From IMG/VR virus record IMGVR_UViG_3300045988_021489: a DNA stretch of 11,733 nucleotides, one strand, 5' to 3'. The stretch is from a virus. The notes under the pieces were generated by a model, which saw only the letters and a list, made by a program, of their open reading frames with translations, searched no databases and was not told where the DNA came from. Each line of letters begins with the position of its first letter. Position 1 is the first letter of the stretch. Both the position numbers and the translations under genes were made by a program. Below, piece after piece: positions 817-11,733 of the stretch.

Positions 817-1965
817 TTACTCAATATATACCCCGTCAGACAAAGCCGTGTATATCATTTCTTGTTCCTCTGTCAGCATTTCGGCGGTGTGTATGGGTGT
901 AACATCATCGAACACATTAAACCCTCTGAAATCGCCTAAAATGCCCGTTTGTCGGTCGTTATTACGTCCGTTGCTTGCGCTCTCGTACCACTTGCAATAA
1001 ATGTAAGGTTCTAAACCGTAATATAACATTTCGTTCCAATCATCGCCGCCCACGGTCTTAACTTGGGTACTTGGTGAAAGGTATATTATTTCGCTGCTTG
1101 GTTCTGTTTCCTCAACTTGAAATACAACGCCGTTGCAGGACAAAAGCGCAACCCCGTTGCCCGTTACCACGTTTATAACGTACTGCAAACCTATCGTTTT
1201 GCCTGCATAATCGGTATTGAGGTTTACAAACCCTGCAAACGGCAAAAAGATTTGTATTTCGCTTTCGTAGTCGGTGTTGTCCTCATTGTGCGCTGGTACT
1301 ACCGCCGTGCCGAAATCAAGCGTTATTTTGTCTTGCGCTGGCTGGTGGCAAGATACGCCCGTATTGTAGTTGCCGCATCGTATTACATCGGTGCTGCTTG
1401 CCCCTATGTTGGTGTAAACACGGAGTATCTTGTTCACGTATGCGCCCAAATCTATGTTTTCGTATATAGGTGCGCCCGTGCTGGGGTCTGTTCCCGTTTC
1501 CTTGAAAAACCGTTTGCCGCTAAACTCTGCCAACTCATCAAGCGTTACCAAATATACGTTTATTGCGCCGTACTGCTCGCCCACAACGGTAACGGGGTAC
1601 GCACTGCCAATAACTGCAAAATCGCTCCAATTAGTGTTTACTTGTATGCTTCCCGTTGCCTTCTTTTTATCGCTTGAAATCGTAAGGTCTTGCGTTTGAG
1701 GGAAGCCGCTTGCGTTCTGGTAATAGAATTGCGGTGTACTTTGTTCGGTGTCAAATTCTGTGCCATCGTTTGCCGTTAATGTAACATTTACCGTTTCCCC
1801 GTCTTTCACATATTGCGGCAAATCCTCGTTAGCGGTGCAATTTGATAGGTTTGTAGAAATTTCTAACACATCATCGTAACTACCCGTAAGCGTTACGGGC
1901 TTTGTCGGGTCTATGTCGGTAATGGTTAGCGTTGCTTGTTGGCTGTATTCCAAATCCTGCACCAC
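817..1965 (-). CDS. Tail knob (phi29 gp9-like), C-terminal segment preceded by an Ig-like repeat domain. Has no ATG start and is in frame with the upstream ORF across one TAA
   Basis: 382-codon ORF whose only candidate starts are GTG GTG at 1965-1960; the first internal Met is about codon 320. The C-terminal block FNVFDD...LTEEQEMIYTALSDGVYIE resembles the phi29 gp9 C-terminus (FNYVQT...DLQEIRTIFDNGITLW) as I recall it. The central FLPFAGFVNLN...GKTIGLQYVINVVTG block is typical of tail knob/tube proteins. Confidence 0.6.
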   Translation of the reverse strand: MVQDLEYSQQATLTITDIDPTKPVTLTGSYDDVLEISTNLSNCTANEDLPQYVKDGETVNVTLTANDGTEFDTEQSTPQFYYQNASGFPQTQDLTISSDKKKATGSIQVNTNWSDFAVIGSAYPVTVVGEQYGAINVYLVTLDELAEFSGKRFFKETGTDPSTGAPIYENIDLGAYVNKILRVYTNIGASSTDVIRCGNYNTGVSCHQPAQDKITLDFGTAVVPAHNEDNTDYESEIQIFLPFAGFVNLNTDYAGKTIGLQYVINVVTGNGVALLSCNGVVFQVEETEPSSEIIYLSPSTQVKTVGGDDWNEMLYYGLEPYIYCKWYESASNGRNNDRQTGILGDFRGFNVFDDVTPIHTAEMLTEEQEMIYTALSDGVYIE

Positions 1966-2010
1966 AAACGGCGTTTTGGTCGCTGTTCCTGCCTTGTTCG
2001 TGTAACTCGC

Positions 2011-2670
2011 TTAGAGGTCAAAGAAACGCACTTTGTTCGGGGTGTATTGCCCCGTAACGGTGAAAGTTGCCGTTTCCCCGTCAAACGTATGTTGTTCGGT
2101 TACGCCGCTGCCCGTTATGTTGTTCGTTACGTTAAGTTCGGGTGTTCCCTCGCTGGCTGTCGTACCCGTAAGCGTGAAACTCTCGCCCGTGTCGGCATCG
2201 TCATACTCCCAACTTGCCGTTTTACCGTCTGGCGAAATTGTCAAGTCCTGCGTATCGGGGTAGCCGTAACTGTCCGTAAACTCCACTTGCGCCGCCGTTA
2301 TCTTGTAACCCTCGTTTGCCGTTACTTGTATGCTCGCATCATAATAACCGCTACCTTTTGTTCCCGTTGCTGTCGTGTTCGGTATGTTGTTTATAACTTC
2401 CAAATCGTTTTCGCTTCGGGTGTTTCCCGTGATAGTTATTTCCGTGTCTGCATCGGTGTCGGACAACTCACCAAATGCCCAAACCTTTGCGCCGTTCATA
2501 TCCAAAACAACGCTTTTCGGGTATCCGCTTGTATTGGTATAAACCGCCTTAACATCGCCTACAAACAAATAACCGTCATTCGTTCTTACGTTTATATCCC
2601 AATAACCGCCGCTTGCGTTCCACTGGCTGTTATCATCGTGTGCGTTAGGTATATTTACAATTACTGCCAT
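2011..2670 (-). CDS. Tail protein segment with Ig-like/beta-sandwich repeat domains (possible receptor-binding insertion)
   Basis: 219-aa ORF with an ATG start, in the same frame as both neighbours. It contains SYGYPDTQDLTISPDGKTA, paralogous to ASGFPQTQDLTISSDKKKA in the next ORF. T/G/E-rich beta-strand-like repeats (VTANEGYKIT, FTLTGTT, FTVTGQ). Confidence 0.55.
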   Translation of the reverse strand: MAVIVNIPNAHDDNSQWNASGGYWDINVRTNDGYLFVGDVKAVYTNTSGYPKSVVLDMNGAKVWAFGELSDTDADTEITITGNTRSENDLEVINNIPNTTATGTKGSGYYDASIQVTANEGYKITAAQVEFTDSYGYPDTQDLTISPDGKTASWEYDDADTGESFTLTGTTASEGTPELNVTNNITGSGVTEQHTFDGETATFTVTGQYTPNKVRFFDL

Positions 2671-4464: not shown

Positions 4465-5037
4465 TTATTCGTAAATACTCGTTGTTAATTCTCTTACAAG
4501 TGCAAAGATAATGTTTTTTCTCCAATTATCACGCCTTAACTGCAATTCTTTTGCAATTTCACTTGAAATTGATTTGCTTGCGCCCGTTCCTTTGCTGGTT
4601 TCGGTTGTTTGGCGTTCCTCGGTGCGGTTTCTCTCATCGTTTGCGGTCTTTCGGTCGCTGTCTGAAAAATCGGTATCGTTAAACGCCTTGTTTGCGCCCG
4701 TTTCGGTGTTGTCCGTGCTTTCCTGCAAAGTAACCGTTTCCGTGCGTTCAATTTGCCCCGTTACGGGTGTCAGTACATCGTAATCGGCTAACATCGCCGC
4801 CGCTTCACGTTCCCAACCTTGCACGTTTACCGCAATCACCGCCGAAACAACATCTTTTGCGTTGTCCGCATTGATAGAGTTTACAACGGTCTTGCCGCCG
4901 TACATCAGTAAGGCGTAAGCGTCTAACTTGGTCGGGTCGGTATCGCCGAAAATAGCGGCGTACTCTGTCGGATATTCAGTCTTGAAAACGGTTGCGAATA
5001 TCCCGTTACCCGTTGTAAATAGTTCGCTGTATTTCAT
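4465..5037 (-). CDS. Hypothetical head-assembly protein, 190 aa (position suggests scaffolding protein)
   Basis: It lies between the portal and MCP genes, with its ATG overlapping the portal TGA (ATGA). The C-terminal half is charged with T/E/R-rich low complexity. I recognise no motif. Confidence 0.35.
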   Translation of the reverse strand: MKYSELFTTGNGIFATVFKTEYPTEYAAIFGDTDPTKLDAYALLMYGGKTVVNSINADNAKDVVSAVIAVNVQGWEREAAAMLADYDVLTPVTGQIERTETVTLQESTDNTETGANKAFNDTDFSDSDRKTANDERNRTEERQTTETSKGTGASKSISSEIAKELQLRRDNWRKNIIFALVRELTTSIYE

Positions 5038-6125
5038 TGCTTATCGTCTTTTGTTTCTGTTTCCTCTGTTTCCTCTGTTTCCTCTGTTTCGGTATCGTTA
5101 CCGTCCGTTTCCGTTTCCGTTTCTTTCGTTTCTTCTGTTTCCTCTGTTTCCGTGTCGTTTCCGTCTGTTTCGGTGTCGTTTCCGTCTGTTTCGGTTGTTT
5201 CCTCTGTCGGGTCGGGTTCGTCTGTCGGGTCGGGGTTTTCCTTTGCCGTTTCCAAATCAGCCGCCAAAGCGTTGTAATTATCCCTTTCCAAACCCCAACT
5301 TGAAGCAAGTTTAACCGAAATTTCGGTGTCAAACATCGCATTAATTTTCTCAACTGCATTTTGTCTTTCTTTTAGCATATTATCCACATACGGCAAAAGT
5401 ACATCTACATTCATACTTACCTCGCCCAAATTAAGGCGTTCACGCTTCATATTATAATTTGCGTTTAGCCCCAATTCGTTGTACATACTCGCTTTGTAGT
5501 ATTGTATCAGTTCAATAAGTTGTGTTATATACACGCTGTTTGTGGTCGGGGCTGTCTGCATATTTACGCCTTTGAAAAAAGCGTTTTCCCCGATAATTGA
5601 AAACTCGCCGTCTTGTATCTTGCGCAAAATCTCATCGGCACTCTGTTTCGTCTTGTCATCGCTGGCACTTATCAGCATTGTAATACGGGTCAAAATGCTT
5701 GCCGTGTTCAACGAAATAAGCCCGTCAGTATGCAAGACGGCATAACGCCCGATAAGCGGCAAAAGGCTTTCGCCGTTGCTGTCATTCTCAATCAAAACCC
5801 CGTCTTTCTGTATATCGTAGGTTTTGTTTAACTTTAATGCAGGGTTCGCCACGGTGTAAAGCGTTGCCCGTCCGTAAACATCGGGTTCGCCGCCTTTGCC
5901 GCCCGAAAGCGCATACAAAACCCCGTCCACGCTGGTAACAAAGGCGTTGCCCGTGGTCTGCAAAAGCCGCTCCAATTCCTTTTGCGGTATGCTGTCGGGC
6001 AAACCCTCATATTCAAACATACTTTGAGTTTTCGCCAACGTGTTCGCCATAAATTCGGTTACGGCGGTGTCTTTGTCCCTTACTTGTTGCTGGTACAACT
6101 TGTAAATGTTATCTTTCCTTTTCAT
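5034..6125 (-). CDS. Portal (connector) protein, phi29 gp10-like, with a roughly 70-aa acidic repeat tail
   Basis: FEYEGLPDSIP and NANYNMKRERLNLGEV resemble phi29 gp10 FEWENLPPTI and NANLEKKERMVTDEV as I recall them. Size and position fit a portal. Confidence 0.85.
   Translation of the reverse strand: MKRKDNIYKLYQQQVRDKDTAVTEFMANTLAKTQSMFEYEGLPDSIPQKELERLLQTTGNAFVTSVDGVLYALSGGKGGEPDVYGRATLYTVANPALKLNKTYDIQKDGVLIENDSNGESLLPLIGRYAVLHTDGLISLNTASILTRITMLISASDDKTKQSADEILRKIQDGEFSIIGENAFFKGVNMQTAPTTNSVYITQLIELIQYYKASMYNELGLNANYNMKRERLNLGEVSMNVDVLLPYVDNMLKERQNAVEKINAMFDTEISVKLASSWGLERDNYNALAADLETAKENPDPTDEPDPTEETTETDGNDTETDGNDTETEETEETKETETETDGNDTETEETEETEETETKDDKQ
5050..5240 (-). repeat. Tandem short repeats encoding the T/E/D-rich portal C-terminus
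   Basis: A perfect 21-bp tandem duplication lies at 5152-5172 and 5173-5193 (encodes TETDGND), with a diverged copy near 5091-5111. A 9-bp unit ctctgtttc repeats 3-4 times at about 5063-5090, and tctgtcgggtcggg occurs twice at about 5204-5236. Confidence 0.9.
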
Positions 6126-7552: not shown

Positions 7553-9382
7553 TTAGTCCTTAAATTTAATTCCACGCAAATAATTTATGTACATAACCGA
7601 AAGGGAAAGGCTGTATCCGGTCGGCTCTAAATGTACGCCCGTGCGTTCGTTGTAATGCGCCGTGCTGCCTTTGTAGTCGGTTATTTCGCCTTGTATCTCG
7701 TAGTCTATGTACGTATGTATGTTTTTGCCCGTTGCTTGCGGCGGTATATCCAAATAGTTGGTAAACGCATCAAAGATACCGTTTTCGCCGTACTTTTCAA
7801 TAAGATACGGTATCGCCGCCTTTTTGTTCACTCCCGACACGGTTAAACTGAAATCGTATGCCCGTCCGCCTGCTTTTAGTGCGTTGGGTTCTTGCACCAT
7901 ATAGCGTTTAGCCCCCAAAGTCTTAAACCTTGTATATGTACCCTCGAAATCCCAAACGCCCAAAGTCTTTGTTATGCCTTTTATCGTTTGCGGCTCGCAA
8001 AGCGAAAACGGCAAACCGTGGTACTTGCAGGCTGCACGTAATTTCATTTGCACCTGCATATTATAAGCCTTGAAATACGCTTCGTGCGCTTTGCCGTTCA
8101 TTATTTTAATGCTGTCGGTGTCGCTGTATATGTAATCGTCTTTCGCTTCGTGTATGCCCGTGAAAAGGTTGCGCCGTGCGTATGCGGTTACGAAAATGCC
8201 CCACGGGTAAAACAAGAAACGGTTTTTGCTGGTGTTGTACTTGTATAAAAGTTCCTGCTTTTGTTCGGCTGTCATTGAGTTAATATCCCATTCGCCGTTA
8301 TATGTAAACTCATCACGCAAAGGGTTGGTAACACTCATACCGTAACAACTGTTTAACATTTCCTTGCTGTTAAGATATTCCACTTCTTTGCCCTCAACTC
8401 CTTTTAATTTCGTCTTGCTTTCGTACAAATGAAGGATAGATTTTACAAACGGGGTCGGCAAATAGTCTTTCTTGTAACAATACATTTCACCCACACGCAT
8501 ACTTTCCCACGTATAAAAGTTTTTGATTATATTAAAATCCACGTCCGTAATTGTCAGCGCAATTTTTGAAGCCGCCACAATACGCCCGTTATTTTCGCAC
8601 GGGTTTTCTTTCACAAAACATTTGCTTGCGCTTATCGGGTTGTCTTGCGTTTCGCTGGCAAATATGTTGGTAAACTCAATATCAAACACGCAACAATACT
8701 TTGATATTAAAAACTCAAATTGCGCCATACTCTTAACCGTGATTGCAACGCCTTGCGACATCGGGTATTTTTCCGCTATCATTACATACGGGTAACTGCT
8801 TGTAAAGTCGTAACTATCCACGTTGTACATTATTTCGTCTGTATATTCGGCGATGGCGTGTGTAAAACCGCCTGCAAACGCACGTTGCAGCATATTAAAT
8901 TCATTCATACCCGTAATTTGTAATTCCTGCATCAAGTTCACGTAATCCCAATTTGGTACGGTCTTTCCTGCATCGCTTTTTTCACGCAAACAATGCGCAC
9001 GGCAATACTTGCGCACAAACCCCGTCTTTGTTATCGGTATGTGCGTTATCCCCTTGCTTTCCTCTATACGTTCCTGTATGTAGCACATCACTACTTTAAT
9101 ATCGTTTATGCAATAGTGTATTTCCGCATCAGTAAGCGGCGTTTCGCTGTGCCTTATTTGCTGGTAGTCCAAATCGCCAACGGCTTTTGCACACTTGTAT
9201 TTCATAAGTTGTTCGCCCAACTTTGCAAGCGAATAACCCGAAAGCAAGTAACTGCATCTAAACTCAATGTTGCCCGTTGTTATTGCGTAAATCGGTTTGC
9301 GCAAATCAATACTGAAAACCCGTTGCCACTCAAACCACTTGCGCAAAAACTGAAATTCGTATGAAAGGTTATGCACATACAC
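7553..9382 (-). CDS. Family-B protein-primed DNA polymerase, C-terminal 609 codons (ExoII to the end). No ATG start; in frame with 9395-9763 across one TAA
   Basis: ExoII is YVHNLSYEFQFL and ExoIII is HYCINDIKVV. Motif A is YDFTSSYPYV, motif B is KEMLNSCYGMS, motif C is IYSDTDSIKI, and the KxY motif is GAKRYMV. The ORF-track start is GTG. Confidence 0.95.
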   Translation of the reverse strand: MYVHNLSYEFQFLRKWFEWQRVFSIDLRKPIYAITTGNIEFRCSYLLSGYSLAKLGEQLMKYKCAKAVGDLDYQQIRHSETPLTDAEIHYCINDIKVVMCYIQERIEESKGITHIPITKTGFVRKYCRAHCLREKSDAGKTVPNWDYVNLMQELQITGMNEFNMLQRAFAGGFTHAIAEYTDEIMYNVDSYDFTSSYPYVMIAEKYPMSQGVAITVKSMAQFEFLISKYCCVFDIEFTNIFASETQDNPISASKCFVKENPCENNGRIVAASKIALTITDVDFNIIKNFYTWESMRVGEMYCYKKDYLPTPFVKSILHLYESKTKLKGVEGKEVEYLNSKEMLNSCYGMSVTNPLRDEFTYNGEWDINSMTAEQKQELLYKYNTSKNRFLFYPWGIFVTAYARRNLFTGIHEAKDDYIYSDTDSIKIMNGKAHEAYFKAYNMQVQMKLRAACKYHGLPFSLCEPQTIKGITKTLGVWDFEGTYTRFKTLGAKRYMVQEPNALKAGGRAYDFSLTVSGVNKKAAIPYLIEKYGENGIFDAFTNYLDIPPQATGKNIHTYIDYEIQGEITDYKGSTAHYNERTGVHLEPTGYSLSLSVMYINYLRGIKFKD

Positions 9383-9394
9383 AATAAGGCGTAA

Positions 9395-9763
9395 TTAGTC
9401 ATTCAGCCCTAAAACCTCGCTTACGGTCTGCATCATCGTGACAAACTCGCCCCACGTGCGCCCCATTATCGTATATCCGTTTATGCCAAACTGCCAAACG
9501 TACATTATTGCGGCTTTCTCTAATTTCGCCTTGCGCCCGTTCCCGTCCTGCATACGCTGCATTTGCTCGTATGTGTACGCCCGTCCGTCCGTATCACGGT
9601 AAAAACTTGTTGTTTCAATATCAAAGGCGCACGGGATATTGTAAAACCTTTCGCCCTTGCTGTTTCCGATAATGTTCTTTTCGTTTACGGCACGTTGCAA
9701 CACGCTTGCAATTTCGGTCGGGCTGTTTATTCTTTCTTGTAACTCAAAAGGTATTTTTTTCAT
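9395..9763 (-). CDS. Family-B protein-primed DNA polymerase, N-terminal 122 codons (ExoI only)
   Basis: The ExoI motif is CAFDIETTS (D48, E50). The ATG overlaps the upstream TGA (ATGA). It ends ...SEVLGLND-TAA, immediately followed in frame by LRLIVYVHNL. Confidence 0.9.
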   Translation of the reverse strand: MKKIPFELQERINSPTEIASVLQRAVNEKNIIGNSKGERFYNIPCAFDIETTSFYRDTDGRAYTYEQMQRMQDGNGRKAKLEKAAIMYVWQFGINGYTIMGRTWGEFVTMMQTVSEVLGLND

Positions 9764-10413
9764 AACCCAAACTTATTAAAGTTGCGCAATATCCGTTCTA
9801 TATCGTTTTGCATATCCTCCATTTGGTCGGCTACTTCATTTGCCTGCCTTTCTATTTCCGCATCAATCGCCCGTGATATGCTTTGCGCTTCACTTTCTAT
9901 TTGGGTGCTTATATCGCTTGCGCTTTGCTCCATTTCGCCCGTGAAATCTTTGTACCGCATCAAATAACGCTCCACGAAATCACTATCCGAAACGCTGTTT
10001 AACTTGCCTTGCAAGTTCCTTGCCATTAAATTGTACTCATCGGGCGTTAAATCGTACATACGTTGCAGGTGTTGCCCGTACTGCCTTGCACCTTGCGCCG
10101 TACTTGTCGGCTGGCGTAAAAACGAAATCGCCTTGCCGTACTCAATTTTTAGGGTGTTCCAATCGCCTTTCATTGAAAACTTGGTAAACCCTTTTACATC
10201 GCCTTTGTTTAACGCTTGCACGGCTGGCGAAAGTTGTCCGCTTTGCTCTATATTCTGTATTCGGCGGTTCGCCATTTGGAAAACCCTTGCAATCTCTTTT
10301 CTATATTCGGGGCTGCTTTCCACGGCTTGCAATATCTCTTTTTTGATTTTCGCCCGTTGGGTTGCTCCAAATACAGACTTTGTAAATTTAATCTTGAAAC
10401 CTAACTTTGCCAT
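9760..10413 (-). CDS. Candidate terminal protein (protein primer), 217 aa
   Basis: It lies immediately upstream of the polymerase and is translationally coupled to it, as phi29 gene 3 is to gene 2. It has a basic N-terminus (MAKLGFKIKFTK...RAKIKK) and an acidic, Ser-rich C-terminal region (EMEQSASDISTQIESEAQSIS...). I recognise no sequence motif. Confidence 0.5.
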   Translation of the reverse strand: MAKLGFKIKFTKSVFGATQRAKIKKEILQAVESSPEYRKEIARVFQMANRRIQNIEQSGQLSPAVQALNKGDVKGFTKFSMKGDWNTLKIEYGKAISFLRQPTSTAQGARQYGQHLQRMYDLTPDEYNLMARNLQGKLNSVSDSDFVERYLMRYKDFTGEMEQSASDISTQIESEAQSISRAIDAEIERQANEVADQMEDMQNDIERILRNFNKFGL

Positions 10414-11459: not shown

Positions 11460-11681
11460 GTTGTGTTCCACGTGAAACAATTTATTTTGTGCATCGGTGT
11501 GGCAGTGTTCCACGTGAAACAATTTCACGGGCGCACACGCATAACAAAAACCGTGCCAAAGTCGGGCGCAATGTGTTAAATTTTGGTAATTGCGACCCAT
11601 AGCAAAAAGCGTGCCACAAAGTGTTTGCAAATGTTAAAAGTGCGTTGGGAAACGTTAAATAGGGGTCAGTAGCGTACCTTT
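11460..11681. repeat. Right inverted terminal repeat, 222 bp
   Basis: Exact reverse complement of 53-274, abutting the adapter at 11682. Confidence 0.97.
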
Positions 11682-11733
11682 AGATCGGAAGAGCGGTTCA
11701 GCAGGAATGCCGAGACCGATATCGTATGCCGTC
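11682..11733. other. Illumina adapter sequence (artefact), reverse complement of 1-52
   Basis: Reads AGATCGGAAGAGCGGTTCAGCAGGAATGCCGAGACCGATATCGTATGCCGTC. Confidence 0.9.

Follow-up and report, generated by a model that had tools for sequence, protein, structure and literature searches.

Why should the DNA polymerase gene of an otherwise complete phage genome be broken by a stop codon in its own reading frame? The question is raised by a complete linear phage genome of 11,733 bp (about 11.7 kb), the whole of which was analysed and is referred to here as the window, and whose genes are nearly all encoded on the minus strand. On that strand a TAA at 9397-9395, codon 123 of the polymerase gene, falls between the ExoI and ExoII motifs. 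The first-pass annotation of this DNA had offered four explanations, namely programmed readthrough, an ochre-suppressing host, a two-piece polymerase with reinitiation at a GTG, and a nonsense lesion or assembly error. Only the last of these is supported, since the TAA is private to the window whereas its relatives carry AAA. With a probability of about 0.9, the stop results from a single-base lesion private to one assembled genome, and is neither an evolved feature nor a recoding device.

The polymerase gene and its genomic setting

The window has the form expected of a genome replicated by protein priming, being linear and bounded by inverted terminal repeats. Between the repeats, profile searches reveal a set of genes of phi29 type:

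1 to 274, no strand: left inverted terminal repeat, 274 nt, 100% complementary to 11460-11733
11460 to 11733, no strand: right inverted terminal repeat, pairing with the left repeat
7553 to 9763, minus strand: predicted protein-primed family B DNA polymerase (PF03175, PHROG 1907)
7540 to 6410, minus strand: phi29 gp16-type packaging ATPase (profile search)
6315 to 6109, minus strand: holin-like protein (profile search)
6125 to 5034, minus strand: phi29-type connector (profile search)
4443 to 3211, minus strand: phi29-type major capsid protein (profile search)

Among GenBank phages the polymerase is best matched, at 94-99% coverage, by those of Astrithrvirus-like podophages, a group described in PMC11476376. 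These phages (astrithr, Astrid and assan of Salmonella, Phanie of Acinetobacter, DU_PP_III of Pectobacterium and Entb_47 of Enterobacter) are phi29-like, tailed and have Gram-negative hosts. Like that of the window, their genome is linear (some 11.5 kb) and carries terminal repeats, and it too encodes a protein-primed polymerase of family B, a packaging ATPase of the gp16 type, and a connector and major capsid protein of phi29 type. The resemblance is nonetheless distant. Polymerase identity is only some 40-47%, so that the closest cultured representative among GenBank phages stands at no more than about 47%; megablast with the whole window found no nucleotide-level match among GenBank phages, and the window comes from an uncultured clade of the human gut, documented by hundreds of metagenomic contigs. 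Metagenomic relatives, by contrast, number in the thousands, mostly from the human gut, where the clade is very abundant, and the protein cluster to which the clade's polymerase and ATPase belong numbers 10,329 members. The exact ATPase sequence of the window occurs on 10 contigs among about 15 billion proteins; when it was used to seek a much closer relative none was found, the best relatives still being about 94% identical genome-wide.

Translated from the ATG at 9763 to the TAA at 7553, the gene gives a single frame of 737 codons that is interrupted internally by one stop only, at codon 123. The family B motifs follow one another in order across this stop: FDIETTS (ExoI), HNLSYEF (ExoII), YCINDIKVV (ExoIII), DFTSSYP (motif A), KEMLNSCYG (motif B) and YSDTDS (motif C). 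Pfam PF03175 matches the product with E = 8e-12, and PHROG 1907 (DNA polymerase) aligns residues 36-678 as one stretch over the stop with E = 1.5e-69. The match to the phi29 polymerase structure 1xhx (E = 4e-5) is a weak alignment in which ExoII, ExoIII and motifs A, B and C are aligned. Judged by these sequence matches, the gene is predicted to encode a phi29-type protein-primed family B DNA polymerase. Its parts are as follows:

7553 to 9763, minus strand: polymerase gene read across the stop, 736 codons plus terminal TAA; 98% identical to an intact homologue (P0001, 736 aa) and alignable to phi29 polymerase
9398 to 9763, minus strand: upstream fragment, 122 codons, with ExoI (FDIETTS); exact fragment on one contig only
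9395 to 9397, minus strand: in-frame TAA, codon 123; AAA (Lys) in relatives
7553 to 9382, minus strand: downstream open reading frame, 609 codons from a GTG, with ExoII, ExoIII and motifs A, B and C; exact fragment on one contig only

In the frame of the gene, the minus strand reads GAG GTT TTA GGG CTG AAT GAC ahead of the TAA and TTA CGC CTT ATT GTG TAT GTG CAT AAC after it; read from 9420 to 9361 in another frame, the same strand begins GCG AGG TTT TAG. Measured from stop to stop the downstream piece comprises 613 codons, of which 609 are counted from the GTG at 9382. This GTG, 5 codons past the stop, and a second at 9376 are the candidate starts; the first ATG lies 64 codons downstream. The first-pass annotation had thus read the DNA accurately, both in the place of the TAA and in the division into a 122-codon frame with ExoI alone and 609 codons with the remaining motifs, and likewise in the frame being unchanged across the stop and in the absence of an ATG for about 60 codons beyond it. 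It is the interpretation that has to be decided.

The two stop sites in relatives

A protein search returned thousands of homologues, of which the best 120 were examined. Almost all of these are uninterrupted, at 725-752 aa, the closest being 98% identical over 736 aa. The residue that relatives carry at the stop column, which the first-pass annotation had proposed to read from an alignment, is Lys in 21 of 27 aligned homologues and Asn, Asp or Glu in the others; every homologue in this alignment with at least 80% identity has Lys. The DNA tells the same story. In place of the window's AATGACTAATTACGCCTT, the closest relative has AATGACAAATTACGCCTT. A flank pattern in which the base was left free matched viral contigs 117 times, in 116 stretches, and the base was A each time. 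Patterns with the base fixed found AAA on 69 contigs of a metagenome collection and 3 of a genome collection, and the TAA allele, which the first-pass annotation had suggested looking for in related metagenomic genomes, was absent from the viral, metagenome and genome collections alike. A pile-up of 179 non-redundant sequences gives AAA at codon 123 in 173 of the 173 relatives that align there.

The polymerase is not the only gene affected. As the first-pass annotation had also recognised, a second gene presumed essential is interrupted in the same manner:

817 to 2670, minus strand: tail or host-recognition gene, 617 codons, its role assigned from position; a single gene in relatives
2011 to 2013, minus strand: second in-frame TAA, codon 220 of the tail gene; AAA (Lys) in relatives

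Pfam and PHROG profile searches gave no match for this gene, which in relatives is one uninterrupted gene of 528-703 aa; the second TAA falls within a repeated domain. Here too the relatives are unanimous, codon 220 being AAA in 43 of the 43 that align in the same pile-up, and the pattern with TAA found no match in viral contigs. Around both stops the flanks are otherwise identical to those of the AAA-bearing relatives. The exact 122-aa, 609-aa and 219-aa fragments that the two stops would create each occur, among about 15 billion proteins, on one contig only, that of 11,733 nt. On this sequence evidence both stops are private AAA to TAA changes and the ancestral codon is AAA. An allele in one assembly only, with an ancestral sense codon one substitution away, is what a lesion or an error should look like.

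These observations bear directly on the suggestion that low-level readthrough of TAA is programmed so as to limit the amounts of polymerase and tail protein, after the fashion of Qbeta A1 or retroviral gag-pol. The window resembles those systems in having one in-frame stop per gene with the frame kept, and its two stops do fall in two essential genes. In Qbeta A1 and gag-pol, however, the stop is conserved and placed at a domain boundary, whereas that of the window is private and, by the weak alignment with phi29 polymerase, interrupts the exonuclease fold some nine residues ahead of the Asn of ExoII. Relatives with a sense codon and a TAA confined to one genome were indeed the pattern that the first-pass annotation had itself named as telling against readthrough. 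Intact relatives have the same flanks, so that no context dedicated to readthrough has evolved. Nor is there downstream structure: the 91 nt from the polymerase stop onward fold less well than shuffled sequences (z = +1.74), and no Rfam family matches the window. Among the stops of bacteria UAA leaks least, and UAA followed by U terminates efficiently; the context at the polymerase site is TAA-T. Programmed readthrough is therefore extremely unlikely.

A different possibility is that the polymerase works in two pieces, with a separate 122-aa ExoI fragment and a 609-aa piece made by reinitiation at the GTG at 9382, the second of which alone would be an exonuclease-deficient mutator. The closeness of this GTG to the stop is in its favour. 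The GTG is, however, preceded by no purine-rich ribosome-binding motif, and the sequence there is the same as in intact relatives. The break would moreover divide the exonuclease fold itself, and no relative is split at this place. Polymerase matches were obtained at 188 loci: 178 show one full-length open match, 3 are cut by contig ends and 7 are disrupted elsewhere, mostly by frameshifts and always at positions other than codon 123. When the 122-aa fragment was compared with 1.84 billion representatives many short matches were obtained, with no pile-up at residue 122; the short homologues that were inspected proved to be contig-end or frameshifted fragments which run past the stop column or end before it, none ending at it. 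The first-pass proposal of reinitiation thus finds no counterpart in the clade, and a two-piece enzyme is highly improbable.

The disrupted loci are informative in another respect. One is a contig with a coverage of 2.2. Another (L008) is broken 12 nt upstream of the site, and was considered as a possible parallel and set aside as unrelated: its assembly contains several frameshifts, and the break is a homopolymer deletion (GGG to GG). Further broken polymerase copies occur in Logan and ENA assemblies. Sporadic, non-recurrent breaks of this kind are a normal feature of the public assemblies of this clade.

Private substitutions and the meaning of TAA

The two stops do not stand alone. Private sites were defined as those at which the base of the window is absent in all relatives and the relatives agree at a level of at least 90%. 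Nine such sites were found against 120 loci and seven against the 179 non-redundant sequences. The seven are as follows:

9397: polymerase, K123*
2013: tail gene, K220*
8853 (codon 8852 to 8854, minus strand): polymerase, N304I, AAC to ATC; AAC in 173 of 173 relatives
5630: connector, F166I
10766: small protein, A26T
2128: tail gene, synonymous
7832: polymerase, synonymous

Five of the seven are A-T transversions (in either direction), with a single transition among the other two. Classed by coding effect, two are nonsense, three missense and two synonymous. The Asn lost through N304I is nearly invariant and belongs to the GGFTHAN segment, which lies a short way upstream of motif A. The relatives themselves provide the control. 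When the same procedure was applied to 115 of them, about half of the private changes were transitions and A-T changes were a small minority, as judged by eye from per-genome counts. In 45 relatives whose changes were classed by coding effect, 608 private changes comprised 350 missense, 258 synonymous and no nonsense, whilst about 27 nonsense changes would be expected without selection (a rate of 4.5%). Natural variants in the clade have therefore been purged of stops. The private set of the window, unlike those of its relatives, looks as though it had arisen without purifying selection. Two nonsense changes among 6-9 random substitutions would occur with P of about 0.06-0.08.

This alters the weight of the second interrupted gene. 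The first-pass annotation had taken it to make a random error less likely, an argument that loses its force once the second TAA is seen to be as private as the first and part of the same unselected-looking set. That both stops replace Lys codons is likewise explained by the A to T bias: within the window, an A to T change can create a stop from 117 AAA, 105 AAG and 14 AGA codons and from no other codon, so that AAA is the commonest route.

The coincidence of the two Lys codons is the chief attraction of a further explanation, in which the stops are real and tolerated in a host where a Lys-inserting ochre suppressor tRNA, or misreading by a near-cognate Lys-tRNA, restores the wild-type residue. 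Lys is the residue to be expected from an ochre suppressor derived from tRNA-Lys, and such a suppressor would restore the wild-type protein exactly at both stops, a point which counts against the lesion or error reading. Against this, the bias just described would itself produce the coincidence, and the allele is on one contig only. No tRNA gene was found in the window by ARAGORN. Efficient ochre suppression would also lengthen most of the proteins of the phage, for TAA terminates 9 of the 12 genes of the window. In relatives it ends the polymerase gene in 179 of 180 cases, the capsid gene in 159 of 160 and the tail gene in 146 of 150; across the TAA-terminated genes of the window, 128-179 copies per gene end in TAA. 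The ochre-suppressing host put forward in the first-pass annotation is accordingly very unlikely.

The same data dispose of the idea that TAA has been reassigned to an amino acid. This idea was prompted by the layout of the genes, those of the minus strand from 5040 to 817 lying in one frame broken only by TAAs, and those from 9772 to 6410 (polymerase and ATPase) likewise, as though the TAAs were sense codons within polyproteins. It was rejected, TAA being the standard terminator. The TAAs that end genes are followed by normal starts within a few codons, and the sharing of a frame is not conserved: F is in frame with the capsid gene in 53 of 165 relatives, and the polymerase gene is out of frame with that of the ATPase in 34 of 180. 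Internal TAAs number two among about 3,400 codons in 12 genes, and both are private. Recoded gut phages (crAss-like, Lak and others, with TAG read as Gln under code 15 or TGA as Trp under code 4) resemble the window in having in-frame stops in replication and structural genes. They carry many in-frame copies, tend to avoid the recoded codon as a terminator and often encode their own suppressor tRNA (doi 10.1101/2021.08.26.457843; PMC9523058), whereas the window has two private TAAs, uses TAA as its main terminator and has no tRNA. The recoded phage clades described in the first of these papers, a survey, are of the TAG and TGA kinds, with none for TAA. The probability of reassignment is close to negligible.

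Origin of the stops and implications

The preferred explanation, a lesion private to this assembled genome, can be set out simply. An A to T change at 9397 on the coding strand would turn the conserved Lys codon AAA into a stop. Taken as written, the gene would be translated for 122 residues only; ExoI would sit on a useless fragment, no functional polymerase would be made, and a like AAA to TAA change at 2013 would truncate the tail protein. In form the changes recall the laboratory sus (amber or ochre) mutants of phi29, T4 and lambda, in which a single-base change also converts a sense codon of an essential gene to a stop with the wild-type residue recoverable. Those mutants are viable only with suppression or complementation, as that of the window would be. 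They differ in having been selected on suppressor hosts, whereas the allele of the window is seen in one assembly only and may be a sequence error.

How such a lesion came to be present is a separate matter, on which two accounts are available. The likelier is that both stops, along with the other private A-T changes, are consensus or base-call errors of the assembly. We infer this because two null mutations, together with a change to a near-invariant residue in the catalytic core of the polymerase, are unexpected in a lytic phage's dominant genotype whose genome still assembled complete. A spectrum dominated by A-T changes is not known as the usual signature of the common sequencing platforms, which tells against this account. 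The other account, which is possible though less probable, holds that the changes are real and that a defective genome was sustained through complementation by intact co-infecting relatives. The contig is otherwise complete and its terminal repeats are perfect, which counts against the lesion or error reading. The remaining probability, shared by readthrough, suppression in the host, a polymerase in two pieces and reassignment of TAA, is small. Of the four explanations in the first-pass annotation, then, the nonsense lesion or assembly error is the one that stands.

It is worth considering what would follow were the stops genuine. That both TAAs belong to a living lineage, either being read back as Lys by a host suppressor or near-cognate Lys-tRNA, or leaving a proofreading-deficient polymerase made by reinitiation at the GTG, is very improbable. 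In the latter case the A-T-rich private substitutions could be read as a mutator footprint, the excess of A:T to T:A changes being its trace, a speculation based on seven changes. Were the stops programmed, they would provide the first case of readthrough at an ochre codon, or of TAA recoding, in a virus of bacteria, measured against the survey cited above (doi 10.1101/2021.08.26.457843).

The more general lesson concerns the use of assembled genomes. Among about 185 public assemblies of the clade in which no contig end cuts the gene, 7 (about 4%) have a polymerase broken at some position, and an in-frame stop met in one metagenomic assembly ought to be compared with relatives from the population before recoding is claimed. 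The phages themselves may merit attention in their own right, as a clade which has no close cultured representative and is nevertheless extremely abundant in the human gut.

Private substitutions and disrupted polymerase genes

Seven substitutions are private to the window, that is, they introduce bases absent from all of the relatives at sites at least 90% conserved among them (positions 2013, 2128, 5630, 7832, 8853, 9397 and 10766). A↔T transversions account for five of the seven, and in the relatives such changes form a small minority of the private substitutions. This excess in the window may be an artefact of its assembly or may reflect mutational bias. One of the seven falls in codon 304 of the polymerase gene (8852-8854), where it replaces a near-invariant asparagine within GGFTHAN, just upstream of motif A, by isoleucine. 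The codon is AAC in all 173 relatives, and N304I is probably a further damaging change in this gene. Polymerase genes disrupted by frameshifts or rearrangements are also present in other public assemblies of the clade, namely L008:1690, L083, L123, L171, L077, L190, L191 and L198, with the break at a different position in each; in L190 the connector gene is split as well.

Two genomes of the clade, L193 and L194, have been binned into metagenome-assembled genomes named Prevotella sp. and Candidatus Scatosoma sp. These names give a conflicting host hint for the phages, and a weak one, since binning is no evidence of infection.

Gene arrangement, connector and tail protein

On the minus strand of the window, a single reading frame (5040-817) is common to five successive genes, F, capsid, H and the two tail pieces, with TAA codons as their sole separators. 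The polymerase and ATPase genes (9772-6410, minus strand) likewise occupy one TAA-separated frame. Both arrangements look like chance, because the frames of these gene runs differ among the relatives. The 90%-identity protein cluster of P0001, the intact polymerase of the closest relative, has 10,329 members and places 736-aa polymerases together with 376-aa packaging ATPases, so that a fused polymerase–ATPase call may be present among them.

The C-terminus of the connector (5034-5250) is formed by a long acidic repeat, TETDGNDTETDGNDTETEETEETKETETETDGNDTETEETEETEETE, and in two relatives a TAA inside this repeat gives shorter tails. The tail protein, encoded at 817-2670 in the window and found also in the related assemblies L002, L003, L004, L195 and L196, contains internal repeats of ~100 aa each and has no match in Pfam or PHROG families. 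It ranges from 528 to 703 aa among the relatives, its N-terminal part being variable in length and its C-terminal ~250 aa highly conserved.

Terminal repeats and the gene upstream of the polymerase

The gene upstream of the polymerase matched no Pfam or PHROG family:

9760-10413, minus strand, 217-aa gene overlapping the polymerase start by ATGA

From its position, which is comparable to that of gene 3 in phi29, it is a candidate terminal protein gene. Within the 274-nt terminal repeat, the 21-mer AAATTGTTTCACGTGGAACAC, which contains the palindrome CACGTG, occurs twice with a spacing of 42 nt (209-229 and 251-271), and mirror copies lie in the opposite repeat (11463-11483 and 11505-11525). 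A replication or terminal-protein factor could bind to this element.
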